This document shows, piece by piece, positions 17,549 to 41,169 of a DNA stretch of 64,000 bases; the first letter of the stretch is position 1, and every line of letters begins with the position of its first letter. The stretch comes from a virus. Location of the stretch: positions 3,628 to 67,627 of the IMG/VR virus record IMGVR_UViG_3300008050_000039; one strand, written 5' to 3'. A program made the position numbers and the translations under genes. The notes beneath the pieces are model-generated. The model had not been told where the DNA came from. It ran no database searches and worked only from the letters and a program-made list of their open reading frames with translations.

Positions 17549-17756
17549 TTAATTCTTTTTGTTGTTCAGAAAGAATTGAGAAAGAATTAATCGCTTGACT
17601 GCGAGCCTGTTTGGTTAATTCTTTTATTTCTTCATTAGGTTGTTGGTTAGACCTACTAACTAAACTACCTTTGAAAGAATAAAAGAAATAACCTAAACGC
17701 TTGACTGCGCCCTTGTTATTATTTCTGGACAATACTGAAAGAGGAAAAAGAATTAA
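17549..17756 (-). repeat. 208-bp symmetric element, copy A (inverted relative to B and C)
   Basis: Perfect 12-bp terminal IR TTAATTCTTTTT/AAAAAGAATTAA; internal AGAAAGAATTAA at +30; two CGCTTGACTGCG boxes. Confidence 0.85.
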
Positions 17757-17797
17757 TTTACCCCCCAATAATGGAGAAATCGTGCAACTACTGCACA

Positions 17798-18067
17798 TTA
17801 AAAATCCCTCCCCGCCCACTTCTGAAATGTTAACTCATTTTCTAAAACCCATAACTTAGCGGTATCTTCCTTGATGAAATTATGAACCTTACAAACAGAT
17901 GAGATAATTCCTGGTGTTGACTTCAAAATCTGACCTACCTCTTTTGTTGAGCCGGTTAGATTTAATTTGTCTTTGATGCTGTCGCTCGTCAACCCCAATG
18001 GATGCTCACGCAACAGGGCGACCATTCGCAATCGTATTCGTATATGCCTTCGTGCCTTCATATCCAT
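17798..18067 (-). CDS. winged-helix protein (DUF3860-like paralog)
   Basis: STKEVGQILKSTPGI...KLWVL. Confidence 0.6.
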   Translation of the reverse strand: MDMKARRHIRIRLRMVALLREHPLGLTSDSIKDKLNLTGSTKEVGQILKSTPGIISSVCKVHNFIKEDTAKLWVLENELTFQKWAGRDF

Positions 18068-18640
18068 TCCTCACTTCTATTTTCCAATTGACAGACAGGG
18101 CAAACATAACATGATTCATTACTTAAATCCGGTTTCATGCTGACGCCATGACGGGCGCAAACAGGCTCGCTCTCGCCCTCACCGGACATACTCTCGCACC
18201 CCATACCATGTTATAAACATTGTGTTTTGCTCTAAAATCATTGTTTTTCATCCCCCATATACGGCCCTAATCTCTTGACCTGTTTCTTGAATAACGCCCG
18301 AACCACAAAGCCCCAAAAAGCACATTCAAGGATTGTCAATAAGAGAGTAACACCCACTAACATTTCAAGGTTCACGCCTTCACCTCCACGCTTCGGGTGT
18401 ATGGTTTGCATGACGAATACCGTTTTTCTCCACAATGTTCGCAATCCCACAAATCAAGTCTGCGCCGAGCAATTGGTGTCCAACCATAGGAAATGTGCCA
18501 TCCCGTATTGAGCCATTCATGCTCGCACCCCTCTTCGCGTTTTTGTTCCAATTCTTTTTTGCGTTCCTCAAGCAAATGCTCATGGTGTGCTTCAAGACTA
18601 CCGTTAAGGTATGCTCTTTCATCCGAAGTATAACCGCCTC

Positions 18641-18967
18641 TCATTCCATCACCTTCCAATTTTTAGACATTTCTTTAATAAGGCGCATCATCTCATTAAC
18701 GAAATCAACAGCCATTTCTTCATCCATGTTAATTACAATATATTTTGTGAAATCAACGGTTGAACCACTTGGACAACCTGCCCCGAATTGAATAGAAACC
18801 TCAGTCACCATCTCGGTCAAGTAGTCACCGCATATAGGACAATGCAACACATCACTTGAGGGGTCATTATAAAACATACCCCAATTCTTCACCAAGCCAT
18901 CAAACAGCCCTTGTATGGTAGCGTCTTCTTCCACACAATCTTCACAAGTTAATTTTTTATCCTTCAT
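18641..18967 (-). CDS. Zn-ribbon hypothetical protein
   Basis: CEDC...CPIC. Confidence 0.5.
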   Translation of the reverse strand: MKDKKLTCEDCVEEDATIQGLFDGLVKNWGMFYNDPSSDVLHCPICGDYLTEMVTEVSIQFGAGCPSGSTVDFTKYIVINMDEEMAVDFVNEMMRLIKEMSKNWKVME

Positions 18968-19212
18968 TCAAGCATCACCCCTTTCATCTAAGTCTTTACG
19001 GTAATTTCGTATTACTACCGCATATTGCTTCATCATATCGCGATATTTGCGAGTTAGACCGGACACACCACCCGAAGGTTTGTTCCCCACCCACGGCCAC
19101 GCTTCAAGCATCAATGCCTTTAGGTTCTCATTTTGCTCTCTCAGCCGAGCATTCTCCATCGTGATTTCGTCTATCCGGTCAAGGTAAGGGGTCGGGTCAA
19201 CTCTAATGTCGC

Positions 19213-19524
19213 TCATTGTTCATCACCGCCTTCATCCATAATATCATTAAACAATACCATGAACCGTTCCAATAGGTTTTTTCCGGTTCCCTTGATACCA
19301 AAATACTTTTTCACATTGGTTACTTTCCAACCGCGAGTCGGTATCACACCATGATTACAATACATTGTCAAATCGCGCTTACTGACAATAAGGTTCCAAA
19401 TTGCTTGGCCCATCGGAGAGCCATTAACCGTCATAATTTGTTCACCTCTTTCAAGTGCTTCTGCTTCGGCTTGTAATTCTTGGATGAAAGGCGAATCTAA
19501 ATCGTAAGGCTTTTTCGCACTCAT
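19213..19524 (-). CDS. hypothetical protein
   Basis: ATGA overlaps with neighbours, GGTG RBS. Confidence 0.55.
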   Translation of the reverse strand: MSAKKPYDLDSPFIQELQAEAEALERGEQIMTVNGSPMGQAIWNLIVSKRDLTMYCNHGVIPTRGWKVTNVKKYFGIKGTGKNLLERFMVLFNDIMDEGGDEQ

Positions 19525-19670
19525 TCAAACACCCCCTTCATTACCTCTTCCCATTCTAATTTTTGTATTTCTGTCCAATTGCTGTAATTCTGCAATCGTG
19601 CGCTATCCTTTATTTTCTGTGACGACCCCTGTTGGTCTTGGCTATTGTTTCTGTTCTTTTTCCTTGTCAT
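19521..19670 (-). CDS. 49-aa protein with SQDQQGS N-terminal motif
   Basis: Hand-translated MTRKKNRNNSQDQQGSSQK...; stop overlaps next ATG; follows motif copy 2. Confidence 0.6.
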   Translation of the reverse strand: MTRKKNRNNSQDQQGSSQKIKDSARLQNYSNWTEIQKLEWEEVMKGVFE

Positions 19671-19727
19671 GTTTATTCCCCCTGCTCTAATTTATCCTAA
19701 ACCCTATCTCCTTTTAAGTCTTTCGCT

Positions 19728-19748
19728 ACGCAGTTAACGAAAGCAAGA
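19728..19748 (-). promoter_or_regulatory. conserved upstream promoter motif copy 2
   Basis: acgcagttaacgaaagcaaga then GCGAAAG-ACTTAAAA on minus strand. Confidence 0.8.
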
Positions 19749-20180
19749 ATCAAGCGGTGTTTGGTAGTCATACTTGAGTAAGTAATCTAAAATTGATGCT
19801 ATCATTCCCGAAAAATCATGTTCGGTTCCGTCACCATCACCCATCCTGTTGTATAGGGCAGGTCGTTCCTGTATGCGTAGTGGCAAATTACCAAAATACC
19901 ATATTGGCGCATGGCCGGTATGTCCTTTCGGTGCTTTGTTTTTGAATACTGAATAATAATCATTACCCGCTTGCGGACATATAACAAATACCACCCTATT
20001 GTCGTTGTGATTGACGAAGGCGTAACCACCGTTTTGCCTTCCCGACCCTGTTTCAACAGGGTATGTTTGAATGGTGATGCTATCAAGCAAAAGCATTGTA
20101 TCAGCCGCTTTTATGAAAAGTGATTCAAAGACGATTTCCGCGTCATTGTGAATACGCTTTATTCTGAAAGACTTACTCAT
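19734..20180 (-). CDS. hypothetical protein
   Basis: ORF ends inside motif copy 2. Confidence 0.5.
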   Translation of the reverse strand: MSKSFRIKRIHNDAEIVFESLFIKAADTMLLLDSITIQTYPVETGSGRQNGGYAFVNHNDNRVVFVICPQAGNDYYSVFKNKAPKGHTGHAPIWYFGNLPLRIQERPALYNRMGDGDGTEHDFSGMIASILDYLLKYDYQTPLDSCFR

Positions 20181-21007
20181 TCCTCTTCACCTCCGGTGAT
20201 AATAGCCTCTCCTTCATCGGGCATCATCAACCACGATACATCACAAACGGCTTTCTTTTCAGCCTTGAGCGTGGATTGACATTGAACATCAAACTCACCC
20301 CAATCATCCGGCCAACCATGAACGGCGGCATTATCCACACACACTTTACGGAATAAATCTGTCACCGCTCGTATTATTCTATTAGCGGGCGGGCTATCAA
20401 GAAGTGATGCCTCTTCGTTAGTAGTAAGGTGAAACTTAAATTGGATTTTGTTTCCTTTAATTACAGACTCCCCCACTCTAAATGAGAACAGCCTTTTTCC
20501 TTCGCTATTATTATAATAGCATATCCATCCTGTTGTATGAACAAAATTACCGTCTTTGGTGGGTAAGTTTAACCTGTCCCAATCCACCCATGTTCTCGCT
20601 GATTTACCGCGCAATCTCGGTGCTTTCTTTTTTATTATTTCGTTTTCATCAACGGTGTATAAGACGCCTTCGTAATTCGTGTCTTTCAACCTCTCGTTCA
20701 TATCATCCACTAATTCACGAAGTAGTGCCTTTTCTTTAGCCAATAATGAAGTGCCGAATATGAATCGTGTCGCACACCCAACCGGCCATTGATTAACTGA
20801 TAACACCGTCTTTGATTCTTCATAACCAAAATATAAATCATCTTCGGGCATTTTATTACCCCAATAATCAGTCGGCCTAAAGCCCGCATTGACTAATTGT
20901 TGTTGCAACAACAATGCTCTTTCTTTACTAAAGTTTTGTAATTTATACCCGATTGTTACTGCTCGCCATGCTTTTCGTTCCATTGTGCTTTCACTATCTC
21001 CATCCAT
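20177..21007 (-). CDS. hypothetical protein
   Basis: 276-aa ORF with overlapping start/stop. Confidence 0.6.
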   Translation of the reverse strand: MDGDSESTMERKAWRAVTIGYKLQNFSKERALLLQQQLVNAGFRPTDYWGNKMPEDDLYFGYEESKTVLSVNQWPVGCATRFIFGTSLLAKEKALLRELVDDMNERLKDTNYEGVLYTVDENEIIKKKAPRLRGKSARTWVDWDRLNLPTKDGNFVHTTGWICYYNNSEGKRLFSFRVGESVIKGNKIQFKFHLTTNEEASLLDSPPANRIIRAVTDLFRKVCVDNAAVHGWPDDWGEFDVQCQSTLKAEKKAVCDVSWLMMPDEGEAIITGGEEE

Positions 21008-21353
21008 CAGACAACACCCCCCGCATCGTATTCAATTTCATTTAACCAATCGGCAAAATCATCCATAAATACTATGAAGCGTTTATCCATTTTCATTTCT
21101 CCTGGTTTTTTATTTAGCGTCTTGGCAAACCATGACATAGTGCTATTTGTGACTGAAAGTTTGATACCATCCAATCCGTGTTCTGAACCTGCTTGTCTAA
21201 GGTGATAGCCCGACGGCATACTCTTTGTCTTACTGTAAATAGGCTTTGCCGACCACTTAAAGGGGCCACCTAACCACGATGGGGCATTTACGACATGGCG
21301 TAATGATACTTGCACCCCAAATCCGTTACCCAACATGAAAGTCATTTCTTCGT

Positions 21354-22346
21354 TCATTCAACCACCCCCTCAAAATTATTGACGATATTTTCCGCATTTT
21401 CAATTAATATCCGAGCCTCTTTCTCTTTCTCTTTTTCCCTATTGACCCTATCCGCCCATTCTCGTTGTCGTTCATCAATATAATTTTCAATCCATTGCAC
21501 ATTAAGCCATTCGTCAAGGTGTTTTTTGTCAGTTAGTAATTGATTTGTTATTTTGGTATGTTTTTTACGAAGGTTAAGGTAGTTATCCACATTAAGATTG
21601 ATATATGCTTGTATGTAATGGTAATTCGGTATGAGGATAGAACGGTCTATTTTGAATTGGTTTTTGAAAAGGTGCATCTTCGGTGTGCTATCCCTCATAT
21701 ATAACAAACGGTTATATGTATGATTTCGGTATATAGTATATCCATTCTCTTCAACATCTTCAATACTTCGGGGATAAACACGCTCATTATTATTATCCTT
21801 TTCAACCCACCACGAAGTAATAATCCTAGTGTTTATCACAACATCTCGCCCTTCTGTTGAACCAAGATTATTATTATTATCAAATACCCAATCTTCTAAT
21901 GATTCAATCTCTTCGGGTTCTGGGAAGGGAGTATTACGGAAATTGACTCCGCCTTTCTTTCCACTTGTAATATAATTCACGCGTGGGTGTTTCTTACGCA
22001 TTTCAATAGTGTGTTTAAGATAGGCCGGCCTTCTATCATTCCCTCGCGCCGCAGTTATTGCGAAGTATTTAGCCCAAGCCTTATTCCAAGCGATTATTGA
22101 TGTGGTGTTGGTGAAGTCATAATCCGATGGATTGATGGTGATATTGTTATGAGTATCTTTGACGCCATTTACCATAAGGTTCTCAATGATATGCCACTTA
22201 TCCTTTTCGTTCATGTCCCAAGAATAACCACCCAAACTCATTCGCTCACCTCCAAAAACGGGCCATCGTCTGTCGCACCTTTCGTAGCCACGCTTATATC
22301 GCTTGGTTCCCCTTCGTAAAGACCCATCTCTTCGCAAGCACCACAT
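21354..22346 (-). CDS. hypothetical protein (true start probably MSLGG near 22241)
   Basis: Long ORF, GGAGGTGA RBS before internal ATG. Confidence 0.55.
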   Translation of the reverse strand: MWCLRRDGSLRRGTKRYKRGYERCDRRWPVFGGERMSLGGYSWDMNEKDKWHIIENLMVNGVKDTHNNITINPSDYDFTNTTSIIAWNKAWAKYFAITAARGNDRRPAYLKHTIEMRKKHPRVNYITSGKKGGVNFRNTPFPEPEEIESLEDWVFDNNNNLGSTEGRDVVINTRIITSWWVEKDNNNERVYPRSIEDVEENGYTIYRNHTYNRLLYMRDSTPKMHLFKNQFKIDRSILIPNYHYIQAYINLNVDNYLNLRKKHTKITNQLLTDKKHLDEWLNVQWIENYIDERQREWADRVNREKEKEKEARILIENAENIVNNFEGVVE

Positions 22347-22474
22347 TGGGTTGCGCTGTCGTTGAACCTTATATCCAATTTCAATCCATTATATTCTATT
22401 TTCATATCATCACTTCCTTTTTTTGTCCTCTCGTATTTTGTCCTAACACTACTGGGCTTATAATCCTTCCTATA

Positions 22475-22495
22475 ACGCAGTTAACGAAAGCAAGA
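22475..22495 (-). promoter_or_regulatory. conserved upstream promoter motif copy 3
   Basis: acgcagttaacgaaagcaaga then GGAAGG-ATTATAAG. Confidence 0.8.
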
Positions 22496-22956
22496 ATTAA
22501 CATTTCCGATTCGCCGCTCATATTTGCCCAAGCCCCCTCAAAAACTCTCCGATGTCGTCATGAGCAAAGTATTCTTCGGCCAAATCTAACGCCTGTGTAA
22601 TGTTATCACAATCAACGAATGTTGGGCCACCACATGAAGGATATTTGAACCAATTATGCTTACAGCCTAATTTACCATCGTGATATTGAACCCCCCAATG
22701 GTGATGATTTTTTGTCTTTCGTATTGGCGTGATTATTACAACCCCAACCATACCGTCGTGCTTTTCAATTTTCATTGCTCTCATTCCTTCACCTCCAATA
22801 CTATACCGTATTCCTGTTCTAAACAATCCAAACAAATTACCTCATCTTTTTCGTTTTCTCTTATACTTTTAGTGGGAGAATTAACGACTTTGAATATACC
22901 AAACTTATAATCACAAGCATTGCCGCATTCACAACGAGGCGTCCCTGTTTCAGTCA

Positions 22957-24051
22957 TTATTCATCACCCTCCTTTTTGTCCTCAACGCCGAAGAAATCCG
23001 GCATAAGTAATTCCGCCGCCTTCTGTGATTTGGCCGCCGCTTTGAATATGAAATCAACCCCACCATCCTTCGCATCACGAATCTTTTTCATCCATGATTG
23101 GAGGTATGCCGCATGATTTTCCAAGCCCTCTTCTGCCATTTTATTTGGTATGGATATGGCCGCACAAAGCAATGCCGCACCCATCTCCGCCACTAATTCT
23201 TCGTGAGCATAATTTTCACTACCGAACATACCGGACATATCGCGATTGAGTCGGCCTGGATTTCCTGTCCAATGAGTCAATTCGTGAAGAATGGTTGAGA
23301 GTCGTCCCTCAATCGTCTTGAAATCATCACGCTTCGGCACTTGAACGAAGTCGCCACTAACCCTGTAAAAAGCCTTGCCGCCTTTCTCTCGGAAATCAAC
23401 ACCATTCATTTTGATAATCTCATCCACTTCGTTTTCAGCCTTGATTCTTCGCTTACCCTTGAGAGTCTTTGTCGCCTTTGGTTTTGGCAACGGTGGCAAC
23501 CCTGTTTGGTCGCGATTGAATACATTGAACCAATCCATCATAGGTATTTTCTTGAAAGAATCGGGGTCGTCTTTGTCGGGGAATACAAGCATATTCCAAT
23601 AGATAACTACCGTTGATTGTTGAGCCTTTTTGATACCATACCACTTGGTCGGTTTTTTCCAACGCTTACCGTCTTTGGTTTCAGCCCATTCCCATTCACC
23701 GTTCTTAATCGCGTGTGAAGTAGCAATCTTTTTCCATTGATTGAAGGTTCCCCATTCATTTGATTTGAAACCTTTGTCCATTGCTTCGCTTATTAACCAC
23801 CAAACATTGATGCCGCGATATGGCTTTTTAGCGGCTACACGCATAGGCAGACCACCAACGCCGCCTTCCCACGGCTTTTCCCACGGCCTAACGCCCTTTT
23901 TCATTTGCTTGATTATAGAGTTAGCAACCTGTTCTTTGATTTGCGCTCGTCGCTCTCGCTTGCTGTATTTCGCCTTTCCTTTACTCTTTGTCTTTGTGCC
24001 GGCCTTTGCCGCGCCCTGTCGGGTCTTTGTCTGTGTTTTATTCTTTGTCAT
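22957..24051 (-). CDS. ardC: ArdC-like antirestriction protein (ssDNA-binding N-domain + zincin-like metalloprotease)
   Basis: PWEKPW, YRGIN, WGTFNQW, FNVFNRDQ, HELTHWTG, YAHEELVAEMGA, HAAYLQSW. Confidence 0.9.
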   Translation of the reverse strand: MTKNKTQTKTRQGAAKAGTKTKSKGKAKYSKRERRAQIKEQVANSIIKQMKKGVRPWEKPWEGGVGGLPMRVAAKKPYRGINVWWLISEAMDKGFKSNEWGTFNQWKKIATSHAIKNGEWEWAETKDGKRWKKPTKWYGIKKAQQSTVVIYWNMLVFPDKDDPDSFKKIPMMDWFNVFNRDQTGLPPLPKPKATKTLKGKRRIKAENEVDEIIKMNGVDFREKGGKAFYRVSGDFVQVPKRDDFKTIEGRLSTILHELTHWTGNPGRLNRDMSGMFGSENYAHEELVAEMGAALLCAAISIPNKMAEEGLENHAAYLQSWMKKIRDAKDGGVDFIFKAAAKSQKAAELLMPDFFGVEDKKEGDE

Positions 24052-24138
24052 TTTATCACTTCCTTTTTATTTTTTGTTCTGCTCCAATATCTCTTCGCAT
24101 ATATATCCATTATACCACTACTATTTAACCTTTTCTGA

Positions 24139-24159
24139 ACGCAGTTAACGGAAGCAAGA
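24139..24159 (-). promoter_or_regulatory. conserved upstream promoter motif copy 4
   Basis: acgcagttaacggaagcaaga then AGAAAAG-GTTAAATA. Confidence 0.8.
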
Positions 24160-26554: not shown

Positions 26555-26608
26555 TTTTATTCCCCCTGTTGATTCTCCCTCACCTTACTACTATTTAACC
26601 CCTTCGCA

Positions 26609-32039: not shown

Positions 32040-32249
32040 TCAAATTGCCCCCATTGCTGATTCAAGGTCTGTCCAATAGCCACACGCATCACATTCCGCA
32101 CCTATATTATCAAGCCAAAAGAAGGCGTGCCGGCATTTCCGGCATCGTATCTTTTTGTTGCCGCAACCAATTTGTTTCGGTTGCAACTTGATAACATTGC
32201 TTGCGCCCTGTGAAGGGGTTGCAAAGTTTTCGTTTTTTACATCTTTCAT
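32040..32249 (-). CDS. small Zn-ribbon protein with MKDVKN N-terminus
   Basis: CRKC...CDAC; first gene after motif copy 8. Confidence 0.55.
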   Translation of the reverse strand: MKDVKNENFATPSQGASNVIKLQPKQIGCGNKKIRCRKCRHAFFWLDNIGAECDACGYWTDLESAMGAI

Positions 32250-32373
32250 TTTTTCACTTCCATTTTTTTCATTTTTTCATTTTTTCATTTTTTCATTTGG
32301 GGATTCGGCGCTGTTCTTTACTGCCCCTTTCCCACAATTATACATATCTTTACTCCTTTATATACTTACCGGA

Positions 32374-32649: not shown

Positions 32650-33970
32650 TAAATGGTGGATATAGGAGCGGCCAAAATTAATGGCTTGCAGTCCAACCTT
32701 TCGGCCGTAATTTTCATTTGGTTTCATTTACTCATATCATGAGAGGTATAGTGTGTTAAAACGGCCAAAACGATGGACTGCGTTTGATATTTTTTGGCCG
32801 TTATGTATTGTTATTTTTTCCCTGGTTTTTCTAACAATTGCTGTATCCAGCGTATGTTATTTTTTTGATTATTATTCTAACAGTTATTTTTTAATCGGAT
32901 TTTGTAACTGTTATTTTTTCGTGGATTTTCCTAACATTGTTTTGGCCGTTATGTAGTCTTGGTATCAATTCGCCTATGGTTGTTGTGGTGGTGTTTTGAA
33001 AGCGGCCAAAAGAGGCAACGGGTTTTCATTTTTTTTGGCCGTTTCTCTATGGGCCAATCCCCAAGCCCAAAATCCCTGTTATTTTTTTTCTCTTTTTTCT
33101 AACAGGGCCAAACCCCAAGCCCCACGAAAATTAATTCTTTTTATTGTTTTCGCGATTCACAGAAAGAATTAATCGTATTCAGTCAAGCGGTTTTTTTTAT
33201 TCTTTTATTGTTTCAATAGTATGTAGGTTAGTAACCTATTAACTAAACCATTAATGAAAGAATAAAAGAATAAACCTAATCGTTGTGCTGGTCTGGATTT
33301 ATTCTTTCTGAATTAATTTTGTTGACAAAAAGAATAAACAAAACCAGGAAAATCTCCGCGTGAAAATCTTTTTGTGGTGGTTTTTTTGTTTTTTTCTGTG
33401 CGGTTTTTTGGGGGGTTTTACCCAAATAAAAAAGGGCCAAAAAAACAGGGGCGCAGTCATGCCTTTTGGCCGTAATTTCAAAATGAAGGTGACGACTGAG
33501 GCCACAAACCCCCTGATGGACAAAAACGGCCAAAAGAGGTTTAGTTAATAAGTAAAATAAGCGTTAATTAATAATTAAAACTGCATCTGGGGGCTTAATA
33601 TGCAGATTTTTGGACTTTTGGGGTTTTTTTCAAAAAATGATATTTTTTGGCCGTTATTTTTTGGGGTCAAAATATAACAGAAAATGTTATTATTTGGGGT
33701 CAGATTAATAACAATCGCCGCGATTGGCGGCGGCCGCGCTCCTTAGTTAGCGAGTGAACCGTGGGCTTATAGTCTTTTCGTTGCCTACGCGAATGTTATA
33801 AAAAACGGCCAAAAAATAACAAAAAAACTCACGACTGGCCAGTAAATAGGATTGACAGACAAAAACGGCCAAAACGCTTGACTGGATTCCATAATTTCGG
33901 GCCGTTTCTAAAGGGGCCAAACCCCCAAGCCCTAAACCCCCCAAAAAAAGAGGCGGCGGCCATGACAAAA
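32650..33970. repeat. non-coding array of A-tract-flanked GGCC motifs (AAAACGGCCAAAA), left block
   Basis: More than 15 visible GGCC cores flanked by A/T runs in both orientations, e.g. 32758, 32790, 33522, 33801, 33862. Confidence 0.8.
33131..33338 (+). repeat. 208-bp symmetric element, copy B
   Basis: TTAATTCTTTTT start, AGAAAGAATTAA at +30, CAGTCAAGCG, AAAGAATAAAAGAAT, AAAAAGAATAAA end. Confidence 0.85.
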
Positions 33971-34059
33971 AGGGGCAAAAATCGCCAAAATCCGCACAAC
34001 GACACGATGGGTTCATATCCGATGGCCCCACTTGCTGAAGCAATCATGTAAGCGAAAGC

Positions 34060-34446
34060 ATGAGGGGAGTCAAACGAATAGCGAAAAATATGAAAAATAT
34101 GAATGAAATAAATGGAGCGAAAAATATGAAAAATATGAATGAAATAAATGGAAACATGACAACGAATGACGGCATAAAGGGAGGTGAAAAAATGGATGAT
34201 GAATGGATGATGAAACACGAATACAAGCACATAAGCCTTGAAGGGTTGATTATTGGTAGCATACGACAAGGGGGCTTAGAAGCGGCCTTAGAAGTGATGA
34301 ATAGCCCTAACTATTGGTTAGGTTGCGAACGCGAAATGTGGGCATTGAATATGGGTTCAATATACGATGATGCGCGCGGCGGTTCAATCAATGAAAAGGT
34401 TGGCTTGATGCTACAAACACGACAAACACCACACAATACATGGTGA
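34060..34446 (+). CDS. hypothetical protein (start uncertain; GGAGGTGA RBS favours ATG 34192)
   Basis: ORF track plus RBS. Confidence 0.5.
   Translation: MRGVKRIAKNMKNMNEINGAKNMKNMNEINGNMTTNDGIKGGEKMDDEWMMKHEYKHISLEGLIIGSIRQGGLEAALEVMNSPNYWLGCEREMWALNMGSIYDDARGGSINEKVGLMLQTRQTPHNTW
34081..34152 (+). repeat. 2 x 36-bp perfect tandem repeat (third near-copy at 34576-34616)
   Basis: gcgaaaaatatgaaaaatatgaatgaaataaatgga twice. Confidence 0.9.
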
Positions 34447-34582
34447 AGTGATAATGGCGGGGGTGTCAAAACCCCTGCCTAAATCCCTTAAATGGGCATT
34501 GCGTAACGATGCGTTGATATACTCAACCACCCTCACAGGGTTCAGACCGCAACGAATGGCGGCAAAAAGGAGTTAGAAAAAT

Positions 34583-34861
34583 ATGAAAAATATGAATGAA
34601 ATAAATGGAAACATGAACGGAGAGGTTGAGGGAGGCAACGCGATTGAAGCATACCGACGCAAACATAGAATTGGTAATAACTTGAATAATGTTATCAGCG
34701 TATTGATTGACTTCCATAGTGAATTAGTGGAACAATCATACTTAGGGTATGAAGTGCTTGAGGAAGTAGTTGATGATTTGAAGCGCATCAACCAAGAGCA
34801 AAAAGCATTGAGAGAACAAATCGCGGCGTTACTTCTAAGGCCGCTTGAAACAAGAGGCTGA
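34583..34861 (+). CDS. coiled-coil hypothetical protein
   Basis: Begins in the third repeat copy (MKNMNEINGNM). Confidence 0.55.
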   Translation: MKNMNEINGNMNGEVEGGNAIEAYRRKHRIGNNLNNVISVLIDFHSELVEQSYLGYEVLEEVVDDLKRINQEQKALREQIAALLLRPLETRG

Positions 34862-34866
34862 ATAGA

Positions 34867-35169: not shown

Positions 35170-35199
35170 ATGAGGTTGTCAATATGTCAAAGAGCATCA

Positions 35200-35323
35200 C
35201 AGGGCGTCACCCCGCTAAAGGTGGCAAAGGGGTTAGTCCAAGTGGCAACCCCGCCCCCTTCGGGGGGCATCCTTCTAAGGGTGCGTTGCGGCCCCTCTAT
35301 GGTCGCTTCGCGTCCTCACCCTG
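35200..35323 (+). ncRNA. candidate multi-hairpin structured RNA
   Basis: Five near-contiguous hairpins including a C(UUCG)G tetraloop, with G-U pairs, enclosed by CAGGG/CCCTG. Confidence 0.45.
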
Positions 35324-35339
35324 CCCTACCTACCGCCGG

Positions 35340-35790
35340 CATTTTTTCGGGCGTCTTGGGGGCTTTTTTCGTCCGGTTTTTTCGTCCGGTTTTTTCTCTT
35401 TTTTCTTCTTTTTTCTTTGGGCCGTTTTTGGGGGTTGGTTTTGTTTTTGAAATCTTTTGGCCGTTTTTTCTTTTGGCCGTTTTCTTTTGGCCGTTGCCGG
35501 CATGAACCCATTGAAGCGAGCATATCACGAAAACGGCCAAAACGCACGACTGAAAGGCTGATTTTCGGGCCGTTTCTAAAACCTGCTAATTTGGCGAAAA
35601 TTGGCACATTTGAAAAGTTGAAAATTAAGGCGAAAACGCACAAAGTCGCGGTCGCGATGTCACGCGAAAACGAAAATAAGCGCGTCAAACGCGACCGATT
35701 TAATAAAAATCCCACCCCGAATAATAATCAAAAAAAGACCCAAAAAAGCGAAACGGAATCGGTCAAATACCTCACAAAAATCGTCAAAAT
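35340..35790. repeat. A-tract/GGCC array, right block
   Basis: ttttggccgtt x3 at 35455-35495, aaaacggccaaaa at 35530, ttcgggccgtttctaaa at 35564. Confidence 0.75.
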
Positions 35791-35884
35791 CGCACATCCC
35801 TCGCGTAGGGGTTGATATACGACCACACAATCGGACAACTACGGAACGAAACACCGACAACCCAAAAATGAGAGGCGAAAAAAA

Positions 35885-36949
35885 ATGAGAGAACATGAAA
35901 ACAGAAGAAAAAGAACGGCCGCCGGTATGGTGGCAAGCATTGTCTTGACAATGTTTGAATTAATCAAGTGTGTCAACTTCGGAAACACCAACCGAAGTTA
36001 TGAGGCATTAGAGGCACGCTTGAATGGGTGCAAAGTCAAAGAAGTGCGAAAAGTTGCAAAGTCCTTGCAAGTATCAACAAAAGGCATACGGTCATTGACT
36101 AAGGCCCAACTAATTGAACGCATCATGAAAGAAAAATACGGATATGACGCAAAGGCTCCCTACTTTCAGACCGGCGACGAGTTGAAAGTTGACTTTCAAA
36201 AATTAGACCCTTCGCTACAACTTGACAACGAGGGGCAATTCATCAAAGCAGACGGAATACTCAACCCGCATGAGCCGACAAATAAAATCAAGTCGCCATA
36301 TCAGCGCGCACCTTCGTATGATTACATGGATGCAAAAACCAAAGCGAAGCACCGAGTAGCGACAAACGAAGCAGGTCAAGCAGTTAGTCGCCGTTATTCG
36401 GCCTCAATCAAAGTCCCACTATTGAACCCTTCAAATGGCACTTTCAAGACATACGCCGACGGCCGAATTAAGTTAGTGCGTCATGAAATGCGCGTGGGCT
36501 ACCTTGACACAAACGACGAAGAGCGATATAGTGGTCGTGTCAAAACCGGCACAAGCAACCGCCGCACCGCTACAATCCTAAGACAGGTTATGATTGAAAA
36601 TAACGAGGGCGCTTATTTGGTGTGGGTTGCAATACTCAAGACCTCAAGTCACTTGATTGATTCAATCACCCTACCAAACTTCGCAAGCGATGAAGAAGTG
36701 ACTCAAGCACTTGATTCAATCAACAAGGCGTGGCAATTCGCCGCACAGGTTGAAGAGGCGTCACGGTATGGCCGATGTGGTGATGAATTAGTATCGTGCG
36801 ACCTTGACCCAACAAAGGCACACAACTGCTTAACTCAAGCCTACGCTAAGCAATCAAACAAGGACTACATCAAGAGTGTTAGGGGCCGTCATTCAATGCT
36901 ACCATACGACCACGCCGTTATGATGCTATATGAGGGGGTGAGTGAATGA
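35885..36949 (+). CDS. hypothetical protein with Rho-N/HeH nucleic-acid-binding motif
   Basis: LNGCKVKEVRKVAKSLQV...LTKAQLIERI. Confidence 0.65.
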   Translation: MREHENRRKRTAAGMVASIVLTMFELIKCVNFGNTNRSYEALEARLNGCKVKEVRKVAKSLQVSTKGIRSLTKAQLIERIMKEKYGYDAKAPYFQTGDELKVDFQKLDPSLQLDNEGQFIKADGILNPHEPTNKIKSPYQRAPSYDYMDAKTKAKHRVATNEAGQAVSRRYSASIKVPLLNPSNGTFKTYADGRIKLVRHEMRVGYLDTNDEERYSGRVKTGTSNRRTATILRQVMIENNEGAYLVWVAILKTSSHLIDSITLPNFASDEEVTQALDSINKAWQFAAQVEEASRYGRCGDELVSCDLDPTKAHNCLTQAYAKQSNKDYIKSVRGRHSMLPYDHAVMMLYEGVSE

Positions 36950-37539
36950 AGAAGCCATGCCGCTTCAAGAAGTGCAAGGGAGTTATTCACCGCGGCTCAT
37001 GCCCCGTTAGGGTGGCATTGGGTCGCAAGGGTGGCAATGTGAAAACCGCCACTCTATCACCGGCCCAACTCAAGCAACGCAAGCAAGCAAGCAAGCAAGC
37101 ACGCACACCATCAGCAAGCCGAAATAAACTCAACAGCGAGCGCATGAAAGCAAAGCAGGCAGCAAGCAAGAAGGCCGGCCTTTGTCTATACTGTCACACA
37201 GCCCATGAAGGAATATGCCCCCTTGCATCAAGGGGCGGTCATAATTCAATCACCGTCCGCACTATCAAAGAAGCGCGAAAAACAATCAAGCGCCGGACTG
37301 CTCTCAAGAATCGCAAAGAAATGGAGCGCCGCGCCGCGATTCAATTTAGGCCACTTCTAACACTTGACGCAATTCCATCAAGTTGGGTGTTTGTTTGCAT
37401 CCGTTGCAACGCATCACAGAAAACCGGCACTATGTCGGTTGCATTTGCTGATGATGTGGGATTCGGACTTTGCAAGACTTGCGATAATCAAATCGTTGAG
37501 AATATCTCGTTTGGCATTGACTCCAGGATTGACGGCTAA
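36946..37539 (+). CDS. basic protein with repeated C-x-C-x-H-x-G-x-CP-x-(K/R)GG units and C-terminal Zn finger
   Basis: CRFKKCKGVIHRGSCP..GRKGG and CLYCHTAHEGICP..SRGG; CIRC...CKTC. Confidence 0.6.
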   Translation: MKKPCRFKKCKGVIHRGSCPVRVALGRKGGNVKTATLSPAQLKQRKQASKQARTPSASRNKLNSERMKAKQAASKKAGLCLYCHTAHEGICPLASRGGHNSITVRTIKEARKTIKRRTALKNRKEMERRAAIQFRPLLTLDAIPSSWVFVCIRCNASQKTGTMSVAFADDVGFGLCKTCDNQIVENISFGIDSRIDG

Positions 37540-37547
37540 AATTGCCC

Positions 37548-37574
37548 CCTATGGCCCCGTAAAGGGGCCATAGG
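37548..37574. terminator. 11-bp GC-rich hairpin between convergent transcription units
   Basis: cctatggcccc-gtaaa-ggggccatagg, 9 bp after stop 37539. Confidence 0.55.
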
Positions 37575-37890
37575 TGGCTCTTAATCTGAATTAGGTTCAT
37601 ACCTACTACTACGGGGGTGAAATGGCTTAGAATGGCTTAGAATGGCCTTGCGTGGTCTTTGTGGTTTTTTGGTGGTTTTTCGCGCATGGTTTGAGGTTTG
37701 ACCTTGAAGGACGCCAAAACCCAAAAAAACCGAGGACTCATATAGAGCCAACCACCACGCGCAATTTTTTACAATTTTTTTTTACAATTTTTTTTTTGCG
37801 ATTTTTTTATAAGGGTTCATGGGTTCGGGTTAATTGGTTGCGGGGATAGTCGGTATCTTTCCCCCCTTTCGCCGGTTCCCCCGCGACCAC

Positions 37891-39435
37891 CTATTCCCAA
37901 AGGTTTTTACTTTTCCTGGTGTTTATGACTTTGCCGCCGACGCCGCTTGCGTTATTTCGGTTTGGTGTTTGTCTTTTTTTGTTTTTTCCGTTTGTCCATT
38001 CTCCGGTTTTCATTGATTTCATTACAACGGGAACGCCGATTTCTGGTATTTGAAATTGGTCTATTGCGTGTGCGAATGCCATGACACAATCATTGTGTTT
38101 TCCCAAATCCACGATAAGGCCGTCACGCCACGCATGGCTCTCAAACTCTTCAAGTAGTATGCCGGTTATTTTACGGGTATCATCCGAGCCGAAGGGGAAT
38201 ATGACCCGTTCCTGTTCAAACCAAACTCGCAACCGATTCAGTAGTCCCTGTTTCAAGGTGCGGTTGCTGACCTTACTCTTTCGGTAATCTGGAACTGCCC
38301 CCTTCTGTCGTAATAGGTTCTCATACATCTGTTGGAACCCAACATCTTCTGCCGCAAAGGGTGGATTACCATATCGTTTCAACCAATCCACGACAACATC
38401 AGCCTGTTTGTCCGGTGGGAAATCGTTGCGCCTCCACATATTCACAAAATGAATATCCCCATCATCATCCTGTCTAAGCACGACCATAACGCTGTAATCC
38501 TGTCCTAATCCGTGTGCGGGGTCAAACCCGATTGAATAGCGGCCTTGTGGATAGTCTTTGCCCCATTCAAGCACCGAATCCATATCAAGGTGTTTTCGTG
38601 TCAAGGCTCGCGGGAATACAGCCGCCTCATCATCCACGACACGACATAGAAACTCTTGAATGAAGGATAAGTCGCCCATAGCGGATTTCTGTTCCAATAG
38701 ATAATCTATGTTTCGGTATTCCGGCCATAACTCTATCGGATTTACGCCGTCGGGGTCTGACCGCCATTCATCCCAATTTCCAATAGCCGACCAAGTGCCG
38801 GTTTTCCACGCATCGTTGTTCAGCATTTCGGTATGGTAAAGGTCTGTCATGGACATAGGGGTTCCAATGACATAAAACCATGTTCCAGGGTCAAGCATTG
38901 GTGTAACTTTTTTCTGAAACCAATGGCGGAGGTTTTTCATAGATATATCGCCCATATCATCTAACACATCGTCAAAGGCCACGCAAGCGGGATGCTCGCC
39001 ACGAATTGCACTACCAACCGATGTAGCACGAATCCAAGACCCATTAGTAAAATACAATTCTAATTTATTTCCCCGCGTGCGGTCAAGGTATCTGGATAGT
39101 TGTGGGTGCTGTTTAATATCCTCCCTAATTTCCTCAAGCCTCCTTGAAGCCGTGTCCTTGCTTGCGGAGAACAACCAAACGGAAAAGGGTTTTTTATTAT
39201 GTCGGTCAAACAGGCAATGGTGGAGTAACTTCACACGAAGAGTAGTGGATTTTGAGTGGCCTCTTGGGGCAATCAGACAAACACGGTGAACTTGCGCTCC
39301 CTGTCTATCGCTATACATTTCCATCCATTCGCCAATATGGGTTCCCCAAGTATAACCAAGCCACCGATAGAAAAACTTAACATCGTTTTTAGCCCGTTCC
39401 ATGCTAAATTGTGTTTTTATTTCCACTATTGCCAC
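37891..39435 (-). CDS. terL: terminase large subunit
   Basis: APRGHSKST Walker A, IRGEH..FDD Walker B, GTP coupling motif, GFDPA...DYS and HNDCVMA RNase H nuclease. Confidence 0.95.
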   Translation of the reverse strand: MAIVEIKTQFSMERAKNDVKFFYRWLGYTWGTHIGEWMEMYSDRQGAQVHRVCLIAPRGHSKSTTLRVKLLHHCLFDRHNKKPFSVWLFSASKDTASRRLEEIREDIKQHPQLSRYLDRTRGNKLELYFTNGSWIRATSVGSAIRGEHPACVAFDDVLDDMGDISMKNLRHWFQKKVTPMLDPGTWFYVIGTPMSMTDLYHTEMLNNDAWKTGTWSAIGNWDEWRSDPDGVNPIELWPEYRNIDYLLEQKSAMGDLSFIQEFLCRVVDDEAAVFPRALTRKHLDMDSVLEWGKDYPQGRYSIGFDPAHGLGQDYSVMVVLRQDDDGDIHFVNMWRRNDFPPDKQADVVVDWLKRYGNPPFAAEDVGFQQMYENLLRQKGAVPDYRKSKVSNRTLKQGLLNRLRVWFEQERVIFPFGSDDTRKITGILLEEFESHAWRDGLIVDLGKHNDCVMAFAHAIDQFQIPEIGVPVVMKSMKTGEWTNGKNKKRQTPNRNNASGVGGKVINTRKSKNLWE

Positions 39436-39443
39436 CCTATATA

Positions 39444-40934
39444 TCAGTTATGGTCGCAAGGAGCATATAATGAGCCTACTAAGCCCTGTTTTTTATCTAT
39501 CAAATGAGCGCATAGACCTGCTCTTGATACATAGCCGTTTTTAGCATGGTATCTATCGTGTGACGCTAATGAAGGTAGTTGGACAACGAATGCGCCTTCG
39601 CTTTCAATTAATTGTCGGTGGTGTTTATGTCCATGAAACCAAATGTGGTTTTCACATAAGCCCCAATTTCGCCTTTCTTCGGTAGCCATGATAGCAGGTA
39701 GTTTATTTGGTCGCACCGAATCGCCATGTGTAAATCCGATAAGAGTATTACCATAAGTTACATATTGTCTATAAGCAGGGGAAACCACTACCTCAACATC
39801 TTCAACGCCTTCGTAGGCGGCTGATAAATACATCATCAAAGCAACAGAAGAATGTCTGTCGTGATTTCCAGGCATGAATACGACCTTAACAGGGGCTACT
39901 GACCTAAGCAAGTCAATATGTTCTCTTGCTAAAGTGCATCCGGTCATTAGTATTTCGGCGGGGCTACCGCACATATCTTGTGTTGTTCCCTTTGTTGTTG
40001 TTCCGGCGGAAGTATCAACATGAAACCAGTCACTACCCGTAGCCAATATAATTTCTTCGGGTCGGTCTGGTAATTTTTGGATTAGGTTTCCGGTTTTCTC
40101 CATCAAGCGCGAGCGTGCTTCGTCAAAACCATATTGTTCGCCTACTTCATCAACCCACCCATATTTACCCCAATGTAAATCAGTTGGACTAATGACGATG
40201 GCATATTTATTATCCTTGCCCCAATGCTTCGGGCTAATAGTGGCGACCTTTTTAGGTGCTTTAGTTTGGTTGTTAAGTATATCACGGAATTGGTTGAGTA
40301 GTATGTCGTCTAATTCACGGAGGATATTAGCATCCTTTTCAATTTCAGCCCATTTCCGCTTTTCTAATTTTCTATGGAATGACCTGCGTTGTTGAACCAA
40401 CATATCATCAATCAATTCATCAACAGGCTTTGCGAGCATTTCTTCATCGGTAAATGGTTCCATATCACGAACCCACCCATGCTTGCGGATATATTCTTTA
40501 ACCCATTGGCGCGGAAAATCCTGTTCCCTTGCAACTATTGTGGAGGTATTAGTCACACCATCCATATTAGAGTATGATTGTTTCATGGCTCGGTGTTGTT
40601 CGCCAGGAACCACTATAATACCGGCCGCGCACTCAAGGTAAGTTAAATATGTATCACTATCATTATCATAATAATAATTAGTATCAAGACGCCATCCTTC
40701 TTCTTTATCAGTTTCTTCCTTAGTCGCTGGGTTCAAAGAATTATTACTGTCTTTAGCCAACCACCGTTGAATTGCAAGACGCCAAGCATTCATCCCTCTT
40801 GTTGAATCAATCTTATGTAGGAACCTTGCAAAAGCAATTTGTGATTTATGCCCCATTACAACATATTGCTCTATCAATTCGTCGCCGCCCACAGAATACC
40901 CTCTATCTTTCTCGCCCATGTTCATATCGTGCAA
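39444..40934 (-). CDS. calcineurin-like metallophosphoesterase with long N-terminal extension
   Basis: DLHWG, GSDWFH, GNHD, FTHGD, HGHKHH. Confidence 0.88.
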   Translation of the reverse strand: MHDMNMGEKDRGYSVGGDELIEQYVVMGHKSQIAFARFLHKIDSTRGMNAWRLAIQRWLAKDSNNSLNPATKEETDKEEGWRLDTNYYYDNDSDTYLTYLECAAGIIVVPGEQHRAMKQSYSNMDGVTNTSTIVAREQDFPRQWVKEYIRKHGWVRDMEPFTDEEMLAKPVDELIDDMLVQQRRSFHRKLEKRKWAEIEKDANILRELDDILLNQFRDILNNQTKAPKKVATISPKHWGKDNKYAIVISPTDLHWGKYGWVDEVGEQYGFDEARSRLMEKTGNLIQKLPDRPEEIILATGSDWFHVDTSAGTTTKGTTQDMCGSPAEILMTGCTLAREHIDLLRSVAPVKVVFMPGNHDRHSSVALMMYLSAAYEGVEDVEVVVSPAYRQYVTYGNTLIGFTHGDSVRPNKLPAIMATEERRNWGLCENHIWFHGHKHHRQLIESEGAFVVQLPSLASHDRYHAKNGYVSRAGLCAHLIDKKQGLVGSLYAPCDHN

Positions 40935-40961
40935 CTAATTGCTTATCAATGTTCCGATTTT

Positions 40962-41169
40962 TTAATTATTTTTGTTATTTCACTTAGTTGCAGAAAGATT
41001 TAAGGTCACACAGTCAAGCGTTTGCACTAATTCTTTTATTTCCTCTTTAATGTTTAGTCTTACCCCCCCTTAATAAACCCTTTAAGAAAGAATAAAATAA
41101 TAAGTGAAGTAGGGGCGCAGTCATACGGTTATTTGTTTCTGTAATAATTTTTTCTATAAAAATAATTAA
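40962..41169 (+). repeat. 208-bp symmetric element, copy C
   Basis: Perfect terminal IR TTAATTATTTTT/AAAAATAATTAA, AGAAAGATTTAA at +30, CAGTCAAGCG, GCGCAGTCATACGG. Confidence 0.85.

Follow-up and report, generated by a model that had tools for sequence, protein, structure and literature searches.

What role is played by a short element that recurs between the main gene blocks of a tailed virus? To our knowledge, the group to which this virus belongs is known only from metagenomes and has no culture system, so that nothing is known of when its genes are expressed or how its replication starts. The window analysed here, a stretch of 64,000 nucleotides (positions 3,628 to 67,627 of IMG/VR record IMGVR_UViG_3300008050_000039), contains three AT-rich, mirror-symmetric elements, and these belong to a conserved family that recurs at matching intergenic sites in dozens of viruses related to this marine archaeal-type tailed virus.

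Three copies of one element

Reading the sequence bore out the original prediction of three 208-bp copies, referred to as A, B and C (Table 1). Each is bounded, as claimed, by 12-bp terminal inverted repeats, namely TTAATTCTTTTT/AAAAAGAATTAA in copy A (12/12 matched), TTAATTCTTTTT/AAAAAGAATAAA in copy B (11/12) and TTAATTATTTTT/AAAAATAATTAA in copy C (12/12). A second half-site, AGAAAGA[A/T]TTAA, begins at offset 30 in all three and, together with the central inverted pair (TTCTTTTATT ... AAGAATAAAA) and boxes of the CAGTCAAGCG type, was found where it had been placed. The view that copy A is inverted relative to B and C holds by box orientation, as the + strand reads CGCTTGACTG in copy A (twice) and CAGTCAAGCG or GCGCAGTCA in B and C; as a whole, copy A aligns equally well in forward or reverse-complement orientation. 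The notion that lengths are conserved stood for the overall 208 bp, while internal segments differ by 1–2 bp between copies.

The alignment of the three copies has a mean column identity of 76%. The motif AAAGAATWAA occurs 15 times in the window against an expected 0.85, with 13 of the 15 inside the elements. In 100 shuffles of the window the count never reached 15, placing the enrichment far above chance. Using BLAST with copy B against its own genome, we recovered copy A (E = 3.4e-19) and copy C (E = 4.4e-8), with no fourth copy across the whole 67,627-bp record. Copy B is nearest to copy C (66% identity), and copies within one genome are 53–66% identical. The elements rank 1, 2 and 4 in AT content among 200-bp windows, and no 10–11-bp AA/TT period was found inside them.

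Placement at module boundaries, also foreseen, proved broadly right. Copy A heads the operon of a 464-aa P-loop (helicase-like) protein, with PolB further along the same operon. A 104-aa open reading frame across copy A (17505–17819, minus strand) was treated as spurious; no protein family matches it, and nothing equivalent spans B, C or the A-type copies of relatives.

Table 1 Coordinates in the window of the elements, their sites and boxes, and the surrounding signals
Feature	Position	Strand	Remarks
Copy A (A-type)	17549..17756		208 bp; between co-directional minus-strand genes
Copy B (B-type)	33131..33338		208 bp; inside 1.3-kb non-coding iteron-rich region, transcription diverging
Copy C (C-type)	40962..41169		208 bp; between divergent Mre11-like nuclease/TerL operon and portal/head operon
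Site 2 of copy A	17579..17590	+	AGAAAGAATTAA; one instance of the repeated site
Exact 10-mer cores, copy A	17549-58, 17581-90, 17615-24, 17674-83, 17747-56	-, +, -, +, +	
Site cores, copy B	33131-40, 33163-72, 33196-205, 33257-66	-, +, -, +	
Site cores, copy B (continued)	33265-74, 33298-307, 33329-38	+, -, +	
GC-rich box, left half of copy A	17592..17607	+	CGCTTGACTGCGAGCC
Second box of copy A	17698..17712	+	CGCTTGACTGCGCCC; direct repeat of first box
Box of copy B	33173..33190	+	Contains CAGTCAAGCG
Second box position of copy B	33281-33296		Degenerate
Box of copy C, left half	41012..41021	+	CAGTCAAGCG
Box of copy C, right half	41112..41128	+	GGGGCGCAGTCATACGG; GCAGT toward portal/head operon
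TATA-like core promoter of Mre11-like/TerL operon	40941..40952	-	ACATTGATAAGC; abuts left end of C
TATA-like core promoter of rightward operon	41182..41192	+	ACATTAATTAC; 13 bp from right end of C
TATA-like motif near copy A	17531..17539	-	GTCATAAGG; 10 bp beyond left end of A, upstream of gene 17272-17502(-)
Non-coding context of copy B	32728..34059		About 12 AACGGCCAAAA/TTTTGGCCGTT iterons and other repeat families

Architecture of sites and boxes

Each half of an element consists of three AAAGAATTAA-like sites of alternating polarity, ~32–34 bp apart, and a 17-nt GC-rich box, and the second half is a mirror image of the first across a centre whose length varies. In copy B, the cores lie 31–33 bp apart, centre to centre, inside each half; in copies A and C, the two boxes of an element are 102–107 bp apart. 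The left box of copy A, when followed along the minus strand toward the operon downstream, is of the GCAGT type (‘form I’). Conservation across 134 non-identical copies is highest in the columns of the six sites, the commonest anchor spacings are 34 bp (s1–s2) and 35–37 bp (s2–s3 and s4–s5), and the inner arms of ~35 bp are the best-conserved part of the element.

The centre behaves differently from the arms. It has 67% AT against 74% in the arms, often contains runs of G or C, and in relatives spans 32–82 bp without 10.5-bp (helical) periodicity in its length, giving whole elements of ~189–240 bp. Within the genome of a relative, A-type and C-type copies differ in length (4/4 genomes checked, one C-type copy being only partly aligned). 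As the centre varies in length among relatives, an element of exactly 208 bp is peculiar to this genome; the length is real here but, against the expectation that it would recur in related genomes, is no conserved property of the element family. The original idea of a multi-subsite nucleoprotein platform of fixed geometry is supported in part, the geometry being fixed for the six sites and their spacing within each half, which are kept across the 134 copies, and not for the centre.

Conservation and placement in related viruses

Searching with a profile of the three copies, we found an element upstream of the Mre11-like nuclease/TerL operon in 68 of 80 related loci. Among TerL loci, 55 of 74 carry the C-type element, and 16 of the 19 without it have too little upstream DNA. 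A wider profile placed an A-type element upstream of the putative replication-helicase (464-aa protein) operon in 32/35 loci, the other three lacking upstream DNA. Many of these counts derive from related sequences rather than from independent events. The flanking proteins are only 51–77% identical across viruses that carry elements at orthologous intergenic positions. In each of the 11 relatives examined, a co-directional gene of ~270 aa extends with its 3′ end into the A-type copy.

Complete relatives have two or three copies each. A covariance-model scan of whole records for B-type copies found one in 2 of 5 complete relatives, which with the present genome makes 3 of 6. No other genome shares the DNA between TerL and copy B, and IMG/VR contains no relatives of two proteins encoded near copy B (625 aa and 354 aa). 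The elements are confined to the heads of major gene blocks; in their own genome only the six halves match, and isolated half-elements were not found. At related loci, 130 halves were paired, and the 20 single halves were all at A or C places.

Outside the virus group, the exact pattern CAGTCAAGCG-N8-12-TTCTTTTATT returned two matches in IMG/VR, both rejected as chance occurrences inside unrelated coding DNA, and BLAST of copy B against GenBank phages gave only short AT-rich chance matches. In prokaryote genomes, AAAGAATWA-N20-34-TWATTCTTT matched at least 120 loci from unrelated bacteria and archaea; none of those listed was a clear element by nhmmer, the best E value among them being about 0.009, and the scan is uninformative on hosts. 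The labels ‘magrovirus’ and ‘MCM’ in the original prediction are tentative. The nearest named relatives are haloarchaeal viruses (24% identity for PolB). The element is not described in the main texts on this virus group (PMC5434244, PMC11706807, PMC10160649), and nothing relevant to such an element appeared among the matches listed by a broader full-text literature search.

Promoters at the element ends

Promoter abutment had not been foreseen in the original prediction. In the window, TATA-like signals adjoin both ends of copy C and the downstream end of copy A. The promoter left of copy C is followed ~30 nt downstream by a conserved ATG, and the one to its right is supported by alignment with relatives, whose distinct C-type flanks, among those listed, also carry outward TATA-like boxes 4–19 nt beyond the element end, with an ATG ~27 nt further. 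This TATA-to-ATG layout fits that of putative leaderless archaeal-type promoters, as judged from the sequence. The gap between element and TATA falls into two classes in C-type copies, 4–5 or 16–19 nt, filled by unrelated sequences; the two classes could reflect lineage history rather than helical constraint. The adjacency fails for copy B, whose ends lack a TATA-like motif and whose nearest gene starts are ~400 and 720 bp away; the iteron-rich region around it may itself have early-control or origin functions, as a candidate in its own right. Elsewhere in this genome, a box-like motif, CCGTTAACTGCG, lies directly upstream of the TATA boxes of eight internal promoters, which ties the GC-rich box to transcription signals.

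A proposed platform for promoter control

The best explanation, which we put forward tentatively and at somewhat less than an even chance, is that the elements are multi-protein platforms that control the flanking promoters at the heads of the main gene blocks. Each platform would comprise two mirror-image units of ~100 bp on double-stranded DNA, joined by a flexible centre; each unit would offer three AAAGAATTAA-like sites about three helical turns apart, with the 17-nt box between the inner two. From this layout we infer that a multimeric DNA-binding protein, viral or host, may occupy the phased sites, that a second, box-specific factor may bind the boxes, and, from position alone, that both together would set the activity of the core promoters at the element ends. 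The two or three copies per genome would then be hubs of common control from which the main transcription units start: copy A would serve the replication operon, copy B the early divergent region, and copy C both the nuclease/TerL operon and the head operon. In favour of such control are the conserved positions and half spacing, the abutment to promoters, the confinement to block heads and the box-plus-TATA promoters elsewhere in the genome. The B-type copies of two relatives contain a 14-bp palindromic operator-like motif in both halves and flanks, as expected of a regulated control region.

Two known systems resemble such a platform. In the control region of phage phi29, p4 and p6 sites lie between divergent early and late promoters, and a multimerising regulator bends the DNA and switches the flanking promoters. 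That region likewise spans ~200 bp between divergent promoters and has several inverted A/T-rich sites; however, it is single and bacterial sigma-70-dependent, whereas here there are two or three copies, archaeal-type TATA signals and different motifs. The second is the Lrp-type wrapped control region of the E. coli pap operon, where divergent promoters flank six sites spaced by three helical turns. The elements share with it two sets of three sites ~32–33 bp apart, a divergent promoter context and two special sequences ~100 bp apart, a distance similar to that between the boxes. Their sites, in contrast, are non-palindromic 10-mers of alternating polarity, and no Lrp/AsnC-family gene was recognised among the 70 ORFs scanned in this virus.

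Several observations count against a platform of this kind. A-type copies keep both halves although the upstream half faces no divergent gene, a situation that simple back-to-back promoter-upstream modules fail to explain. Copy B lies far from gene starts, with no TATA at its ends. Finally, mirror symmetry, high AT content and two or three dispersed copies fit replication origins equally well.

Replication origins as the main rival

The elements might instead be lytic replication origins, two or three per genome, lying between or beside promoters. We consider this main rival somewhat less probable than the platform, though far from negligible; it would have inverted arrays of initiator sites flanking a central zone where the duplex opens and the viral helicase is loaded. 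In its fullest form, factors on the six phased sites would load that helicase, and the origins would be interleaved with the promoters of the replication and late operons. The rival accommodates the mirrored halves, whose intervening centre is variable in both length and sequence, the high rank of the elements in AT content among 200-bp windows, the conservation of the ~35-bp inner arms and the retention of both A-type halves without a divergent promoter. In addition, the A-type copy lies 1.3–1.5 kb upstream of the gene for the 464-aa P-loop protein (Walker A, GAKGSGKS), genes for a PolB and a clamp loader are present in the viral genome, and B-type copies lie among iterons or contain them.

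On the other hand, the centre is less AT-rich than the arms and often has G or C runs, and neither an Orc1/Cdc6-type nor another initiator was recognised in the 70 ORFs. The 464-aa protein is only a putative helicase: as a single sequence or as a profile it has no Pfam, PHROG or PDB match, the Atlas points only weakly to an SF3-helicase family, seen in 10% of a cluster next to its own, and its AlphaFold model is poor (mean pLDDT 53.5). More conventional origin candidates exist in the iteron-rich region here and in a TTTGTAGATAA region in a relative, while the tight TATA abutment and the box-plus-TATA promoters elsewhere point to transcription. In the GC-skew check that the original prediction had called for, the skew shifts only where the gene strand changes, and not at all at copy A.

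Herpes simplex virus oriL and oriS have an AT-rich palindromic layout with inverted binding sites around a centre and lie between or beside promoters; the elements share their dispersed copies, AT-rich palindromic layout and location between divergent promoters or beside replication genes. There is, however, no sequence relation, the elements have six phased sites and two boxes over ~200 bp, and they are only candidate origins with no recognised origin-binding protein among the 70 ORFs. Archaeal chromosomal origins with inverted ORB elements are alike in their ~35-bp inverted conserved arms and variable central zone, but here the centre is not the most AT-rich part and no orc1/cdc6 gene lies alongside.

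Other explanations

A role as conserved linkers for homologous exchange of modules, or as architectural sites with no regulatory role, is improbable in our view. The copies do sit at module boundaries, the DNA between TerL and copy B is specific to this genome, and B-type copies occur in only half of the complete genomes. However, six phased sites, boxes and a kept half spacing are more ordered than recombination linkers need, and copies only 53–66% identical would be poor substrates for homologous recombination.

Little more can be said for a role at the RNA level, in which TATA-like inner sites would drive transcription of a structured leader, attenuator or small RNA whose start site lies at the GCAGT box; we rate this as slightly less probable still. 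It draws on the A-type half facing the downstream operon, whose box is GCAGT-outward in 22/22 distinct halves, and on the box core, which follows a AATAAAAG-like stretch by 17–19 nt, a layout found once outside the elements, near 33423–33460. Taken as single-stranded molecules, copies A and B also fold well (z = −7.0 and −6.1). Copy C, however, folds no better than its shuffles (z = −0.69), and 31% of 130 elements have z above −1.5 (10 simple shuffles per element, not dinucleotide-preserving). RNAalifold on the outward-reading strand of 110 half-elements gave 0 pairs and 0 kcal/mol, and an Rfam scan of the whole window at gathering thresholds gave 0 matches. Moreover, box orientation is mixed in C-type copies, and the spacing to the TATA-like stretch is 2–4 nt shorter than at gene promoters. 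No RNA fold is conserved and hairpin potential varies, in keeping with a control platform that needs no strand structure.

A MITE or other selfish repeat that has spread to three sites is very improbable. The size of ~200 bp, the 12-bp terminal inverted repeats, the three dispersed intergenic copies and the presence or absence of the B-type copy among relatives would suit it, and T4-type promoter/stem-loop cassettes and MITEs likewise recur as short intergenic units where modules meet, in some cases bounded by terminal inverted repeats. Against this stand the orthologous fixed positions in dozens of diverged genomes, the limit of two or three copies per genome and the failure to find copies outside the virus group in the IMG/VR pattern search and among the prokaryote loci listed. 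No target-site duplication is visible at the ends of the three copies, no conserved stem-loop was found, and no transposase family was found among the 70 ORFs.

Equally remote, in our estimate, are the recombination (res-like or inversion) and packaging (pac/cos) sites that the original prediction had raised. The multi-subsite layout does resemble that of accessory-site recombination sites, copy C lies beside the TerL operon and box orientation flips between lineages. Yet no serine or tyrosine recombinase family was found by Pfam in the 70 ORFs, extending the lack of a visible recombinase from the window to the whole 67.6-kb genome, and the 6/6 contigs that contain both TerL and the 464-aa gene agree in how these two are oriented to each other. 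The A-type copy is far from packaging genes, and for two relatives classed as carrying direct terminal repeats the nearest element is about 3–5 kb away from the record ends. The MITE, res-like, packaging-site and non-coding RNA readings are thus poorly supported.

Implications for the virus group

For viruses that lack a culture system, an element kept at two or three fixed positions with a clear grammar of sites is a concrete experimental handle. A synthesised element could pull out its binding proteins, whether viral or from the uncultured host, and the element could be used to map promoters or origins in metatranscriptomes and deep metagenomes; it is also a possible marker for recognising and orienting related viral contigs. 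Should the partner be a host protein, it would give insight into host chromatin or into basal transcription or replication factors. If the elements were origins, magrovirus-like viruses, an abundant uncultured group of marine archaeal tailed viruses, would gain their first defined cis-acting origins, and these would provide a parallel to herpesvirus oriL and oriS within the same virus realm.

Three copies of a mirror-symmetric element in the window

The original prediction reported three dispersed 208-bp copies (A, B and C) of an AT-rich, mirror-symmetric intergenic element, and the sequence bears this out. The 12-bp terminal inverted repeats match at 12/12, 11/12 and 12/12 positions in A, B and C, respectively, the AGAAAGA[A/T]TTAA half-site starts at offset 30 in all three, and the central inverted pair is found as well. 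On the plus strand, the GC-rich motif termed the box reads CGCTTGACTG in A and CAGTCAAGCG or GCGCAGTCA in B and C. When aligned, the copies show a mean column identity of 76%, with A aligning equally well to the others in either orientation. Using BLAST, we found that B matched A (E 3.4e-19) and C (E 4.4e-8) and nothing else in the whole genome; among the window copies, B is nearest to C (66% identity). The window has 15 occurrences of the 10-mer AAAGAATWAA versus 0.85 expected, a count reached in 0 of 100 shuffles, and 13 of the 15 lie inside elements. Among 200-bp stretches, B, C and A rank first, second and fourth for AT-richness.

The source IMG/VR record (67,627 bp), of which the window covers bases 3628–67627, is rated complete, and gene identities in the window were assigned using Pfam and PHROGs (Table). 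The nearest named relatives of PolB are haloarchaeal tailed viruses and those of TerL assorted phages, both remote at 24% identity; the label 'magrovirus' is plausible. TATA-like boxes lie ~27 nt upstream of the ATG at gene starts, a placement that we read as archaeal-type, largely leaderless gene expression. The ERCC4/XPF and PD-(D/E)XK nucleases, together with the TerL-adjacent Mre11-like exonuclease, suggest recombination-dependent replication or concatemer processing. A 464-aa P-loop protein, which retains 63–76% identity across 11 relatives, had no match in Pfam, PHROG or PDB and gave a poor AlphaFold model; it may be a replicative helicase, the 'MCM' of the original prediction.

Features of the virus genome (window positions unless G000, the virus's own genome, is named) and of relatives G002 and G003
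Feature	Position	Strand	Remarks
Element copy A	17549-17756
Element copy B	33131-33338
Element copy C	40962-41169
TATA-like box at A	17531-17539	minus	precedes gene 17272-17502
TATA-like box at C, left	40941-40952	minus
TATA-like box at C, right	41182-41192	plus
Eight near-identical 20-nt blocks CTTGCTTCCGTTAACTGCGT	ACTGCG cores at 11094, 19729, 22476, 24140, 26610, 28358, 30407, 32375	minus
Family-B DNA polymerase (PolB)	1475-3721	minus	Pfam/PHROGs
Clamp-loader ATPase	8839-9786	minus	Pfam/PHROGs
464-aa protein	14623-16017	minus	Walker A (GAKGSGKS), acidic EEF stretch, DRRFF motif, N-terminal cysteine pairs
TerL	37891-39435	minus	Pfam/PHROGs
Mre11/SbcD-like exonuclease	39444-40934	minus	Pfam/PHROGs
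Two DNA methyltransferases	window		Pfam/PHROGs
ArdC-like protein	window		Pfam/PHROGs
Portal, tail tube and tape-measure genes	window	plus	Pfam/PHROGs
ERCC4/XPF nuclease with helix-hairpin-helix motifs	G000:C1:1481-2212	minus	in the 3.6 kb outside the window
PD-(D/E)XK nuclease	G000:C1:3487-4359	minus	outside the window
B-type copy with CTACAAATTTGTAG (L200)	G002:C1:50281-50488
B-type copy with CTACAAATTTGTAG (L201)	G003:C1:68878-69077

The element occupies fixed positions in related genomes

We applied a first profile, derived solely from A, B and C, to 80 IMG/VR loci retrieved via the Mre11-like protein (51–69% identity). It matched 68 of them at E <1e-3, in every case no more than ~300 bp upstream of the Mre11-like gene and syntenic with C (C-type copies); in 5 of the 12 loci without a match, upstream DNA is scant or missing. 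With a wider profile, 32 of 35 loci retrieved via the 464-aa protein (59–77% identity) contained exactly one element, ~1.1–1.5 kb upstream of its gene and syntenic with A (A-type copies), and the remaining 3 lack the upstream DNA. Among 74 further loci retrieved via TerL, 55 carry one element upstream of the nuclease–TerL pair and 19 carry none, 16 of these having too little upstream DNA. No second element was found within 10 kb downstream of TerL in the 74 loci.

Scanning five complete relatives with a sequence-only covariance model of the half-element identified 2, 3, 3, 2 and 2 elements. In the two three-copy relatives, the extra copy lies 7.3–7.8 kb from the C-type and 12.7–14.1 kb from the A-type copy, compared with 7.8 kb (B–C) and 15.6 kb (A–B) in the virus's own genome; the three-copy layout therefore recurs, but the B-type copy is optional. 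Lone half-elements were not found, the halves never being used singly, and the matches listed included no clear copy outside this virus group.

Two mirror-image units with tight internal spacing

A consensus of 134 non-identical copies and a separate alignment of 110 halves revealed two mirror-image units per element. From the centre outwards, each unit comprises an inner arm of ~35 bp (…CTAAA..ACCT[A/T]TGAAA.AATAAAAGAATTA), a 17-nt GC-rich box (CCG-N4-ACTGCG[A/C][G/C]CC or the reverse complement), a site with the opposite polarity (TTTAATTCTTTTTG) and an outermost site (AACAAnAAAAAGAAT). The element has six AAAGAATTAA-like cores (s1–s6) of alternating polarity, with consensus intervals within halves of 32, 33, 34 and ~31 bp. 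The anchor distance s1–s2 is 34 bp in 84/112 copies, while s2–s3 and s4–s5 measure 35–37 bp. The predicted fixed geometry holds within the halves but not across the centre, which varies widely (61–112 bp between anchors, or a 32–82-bp core) with no 10.5-bp periodicity (Rayleigh R 0.05). Total length ranges from ~189 to 240 bp in the family. Where the A-type and C-type copies of a relative were compared, their lengths differed in 4/4 genomes, one C-type copy being only partly aligned; the shared 208 bp is therefore a local feature rather than a family rule, and could reflect recent duplication or chance compensation.

The box lies halfway between two inverted sites and can face either way, which suggests repeated evolutionary inversion of the spacer. 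In the A-type half toward the downstream operon, it is GCAGT-outward in 22 of 22 distinct halves, orientation being mixed in the upstream-facing half (10, 15 and 2 ambiguous) and in both C-type halves, although these counts are not phylogenetically independent. A local inverted repeat is centred on the box, whose orientation varies by lineage and half (loci L011–L199, half-element alignment A3).

The window gave no Rfam match at gathering thresholds, and RNAalifold returned 0 pairs, hence no conserved RNA fold, for the outward-reading strand of the 110 halves. Single-stranded DNA folding relative to shuffles gave z scores of −7.0 (A), −6.1 (B) and −0.7 (C), and 130 family members had a median of −2.4, with 41% below −3 and 31% above −1.5. 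Conservation extends to how the sites are arranged on duplex DNA and not to base pairing or hairpin/cruciform potential.

Elements abut core promoters

At C-type loci, the element occupies the whole interval separating divergent core promoters: just past the outer site comes a TATA-like box ([C/T]TT.AT[A/T]A[A/G]G), followed ~27 nt further on by a conserved ATG. The element-to-TATA gap falls into two classes, 4–5 nt or 16–19 nt, and the filler in the longer class is unrelated between lineages. The setting of A-type copies is always co-directional; a ~270-aa gene extends into the upstream half, reaching its outer sites, in all 11 relatives examined, and genes of 125–165, 261–300 and ~440 aa follow downstream.

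A box-like motif (CCGTTAACTGCG) also lies directly upstream of TATA at eight internal promoters, inside a conserved 20-nt block. These blocks precede minus-strand genes, with a TATA-like box 6–9 nt downstream, and their motif is similar to the box of the 208-bp elements; they look like a promoter class with a common upstream factor site. Separately, the 12-mer ATCGTGCAACTA is common to the right flank of A (17779–17790) and the left flank of C (40926–40937). In the C flank, the 12-mer separates the nuclease gene's TATA box from its ATG; in the A flank, it is preceded by a TATA-like TTTTTAATG on the minus strand that would send transcription into A.

B lies in an iteron-rich region

B is embedded in a 1.3-kb non-coding region (32728–34059), a candidate separate early-control or origin region. 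It contains ~12 AACGGCCAAAA/TTTTGGCCGTT iterons, some pairs of which flank an AAACG-N4-ACTG box, and other repeat families, with five TGTTATTTTTT...TCTAACA units and three GGGCCAAACCCCAAGCCC units. The equivalent region of a two-copy relative has no element and approximately nine TTTGTAGATAA-type iterons. In the two three-copy relatives, both halves of the B-type element carry a 14-bp palindrome, CTACAAATTTGTAG, between box and inner site, repeated in the flanks of both elements. A relative lacking a B-type copy has free iterons of this motif family at the corresponding place (merged locus, 18050–18853).

Nearby, a ~41-nt unit (GAAAAATATGAAAAATATGAATGAAATAAATGG...) is repeated within 34078–34616 at the starts of plus-strand ORFs 34060–34446 and 34583–34861, which thus have N-terminal coding sequence in common. 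A run of TTTTTTCA octamers (AATGAAAA repeats, minus strand) at 32263–32306 lies just upstream of the minus-strand gene 32040–32249.

A proposed control platform or possible replication origin

We tentatively favour, at somewhat less than even odds, a protein-bound platform controlling the flanking promoters. In each unit, a multimeric protein would occupy the three phased sites, and the box would be recognized by another factor. The arrangement of sites, its conservation, the abutment to promoters and the connection with box-plus-TATA promoters are observed; protein binding, which proteins bind and a transcriptional output are inferred. The main weakness of the proposal concerns A-type copies, in which a complete upstream half is retained although it has no promoter to act on; moreover, B adjoins no gene start in the window.

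That the elements are multiple replication origins, an option in the original prediction, is the main alternative and somewhat less likely. Mirror symmetry about a variable centre, AT-richness, the two halves kept at A, the location upstream of the P-loop (possibly helicase) gene and the association of B-type copies with iterons fit origins equally well. However, AT content is lower in the centre than in the arms, none of the 70 ORFs scanned encodes a recognizable initiator, and the separate iteron regions are more conventional-looking origin candidates.

The other roles proposed originally found no support: no recombinase for site-specific recombination was found in 70 ORFs scanned, the marker genes share one relative orientation in 6/6 contigs holding both, and the ends of two relatives that have direct terminal repeats are 3–5 kb away from their closest element, which does not favour packaging. 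A typical MITE was rejected given the orthologous positions, 2–3 copies per genome, no visible target duplication and no transposase found.

Palindromic control or origin regions with multiple sites are already known, and herpes simplex virus oriL and oriS have a similar layout. The main texts searched on Poseidoniales viruses make no mention of origins, repeats, promoters or palindromes, and a wider full-text literature search listed nothing of relevance. New to the searches made are the six alternating sites at three-turn spacing, the two invertible boxes and the 2–3 fixed copies per genome.

Under the favoured control platform, the bound assembly would govern the adjoining core promoters, which head the blocks of replication, early and late genes. 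Possibly the elements serve both functions, as promoter-coupled origins, in which case the control and origin readings need not conflict.
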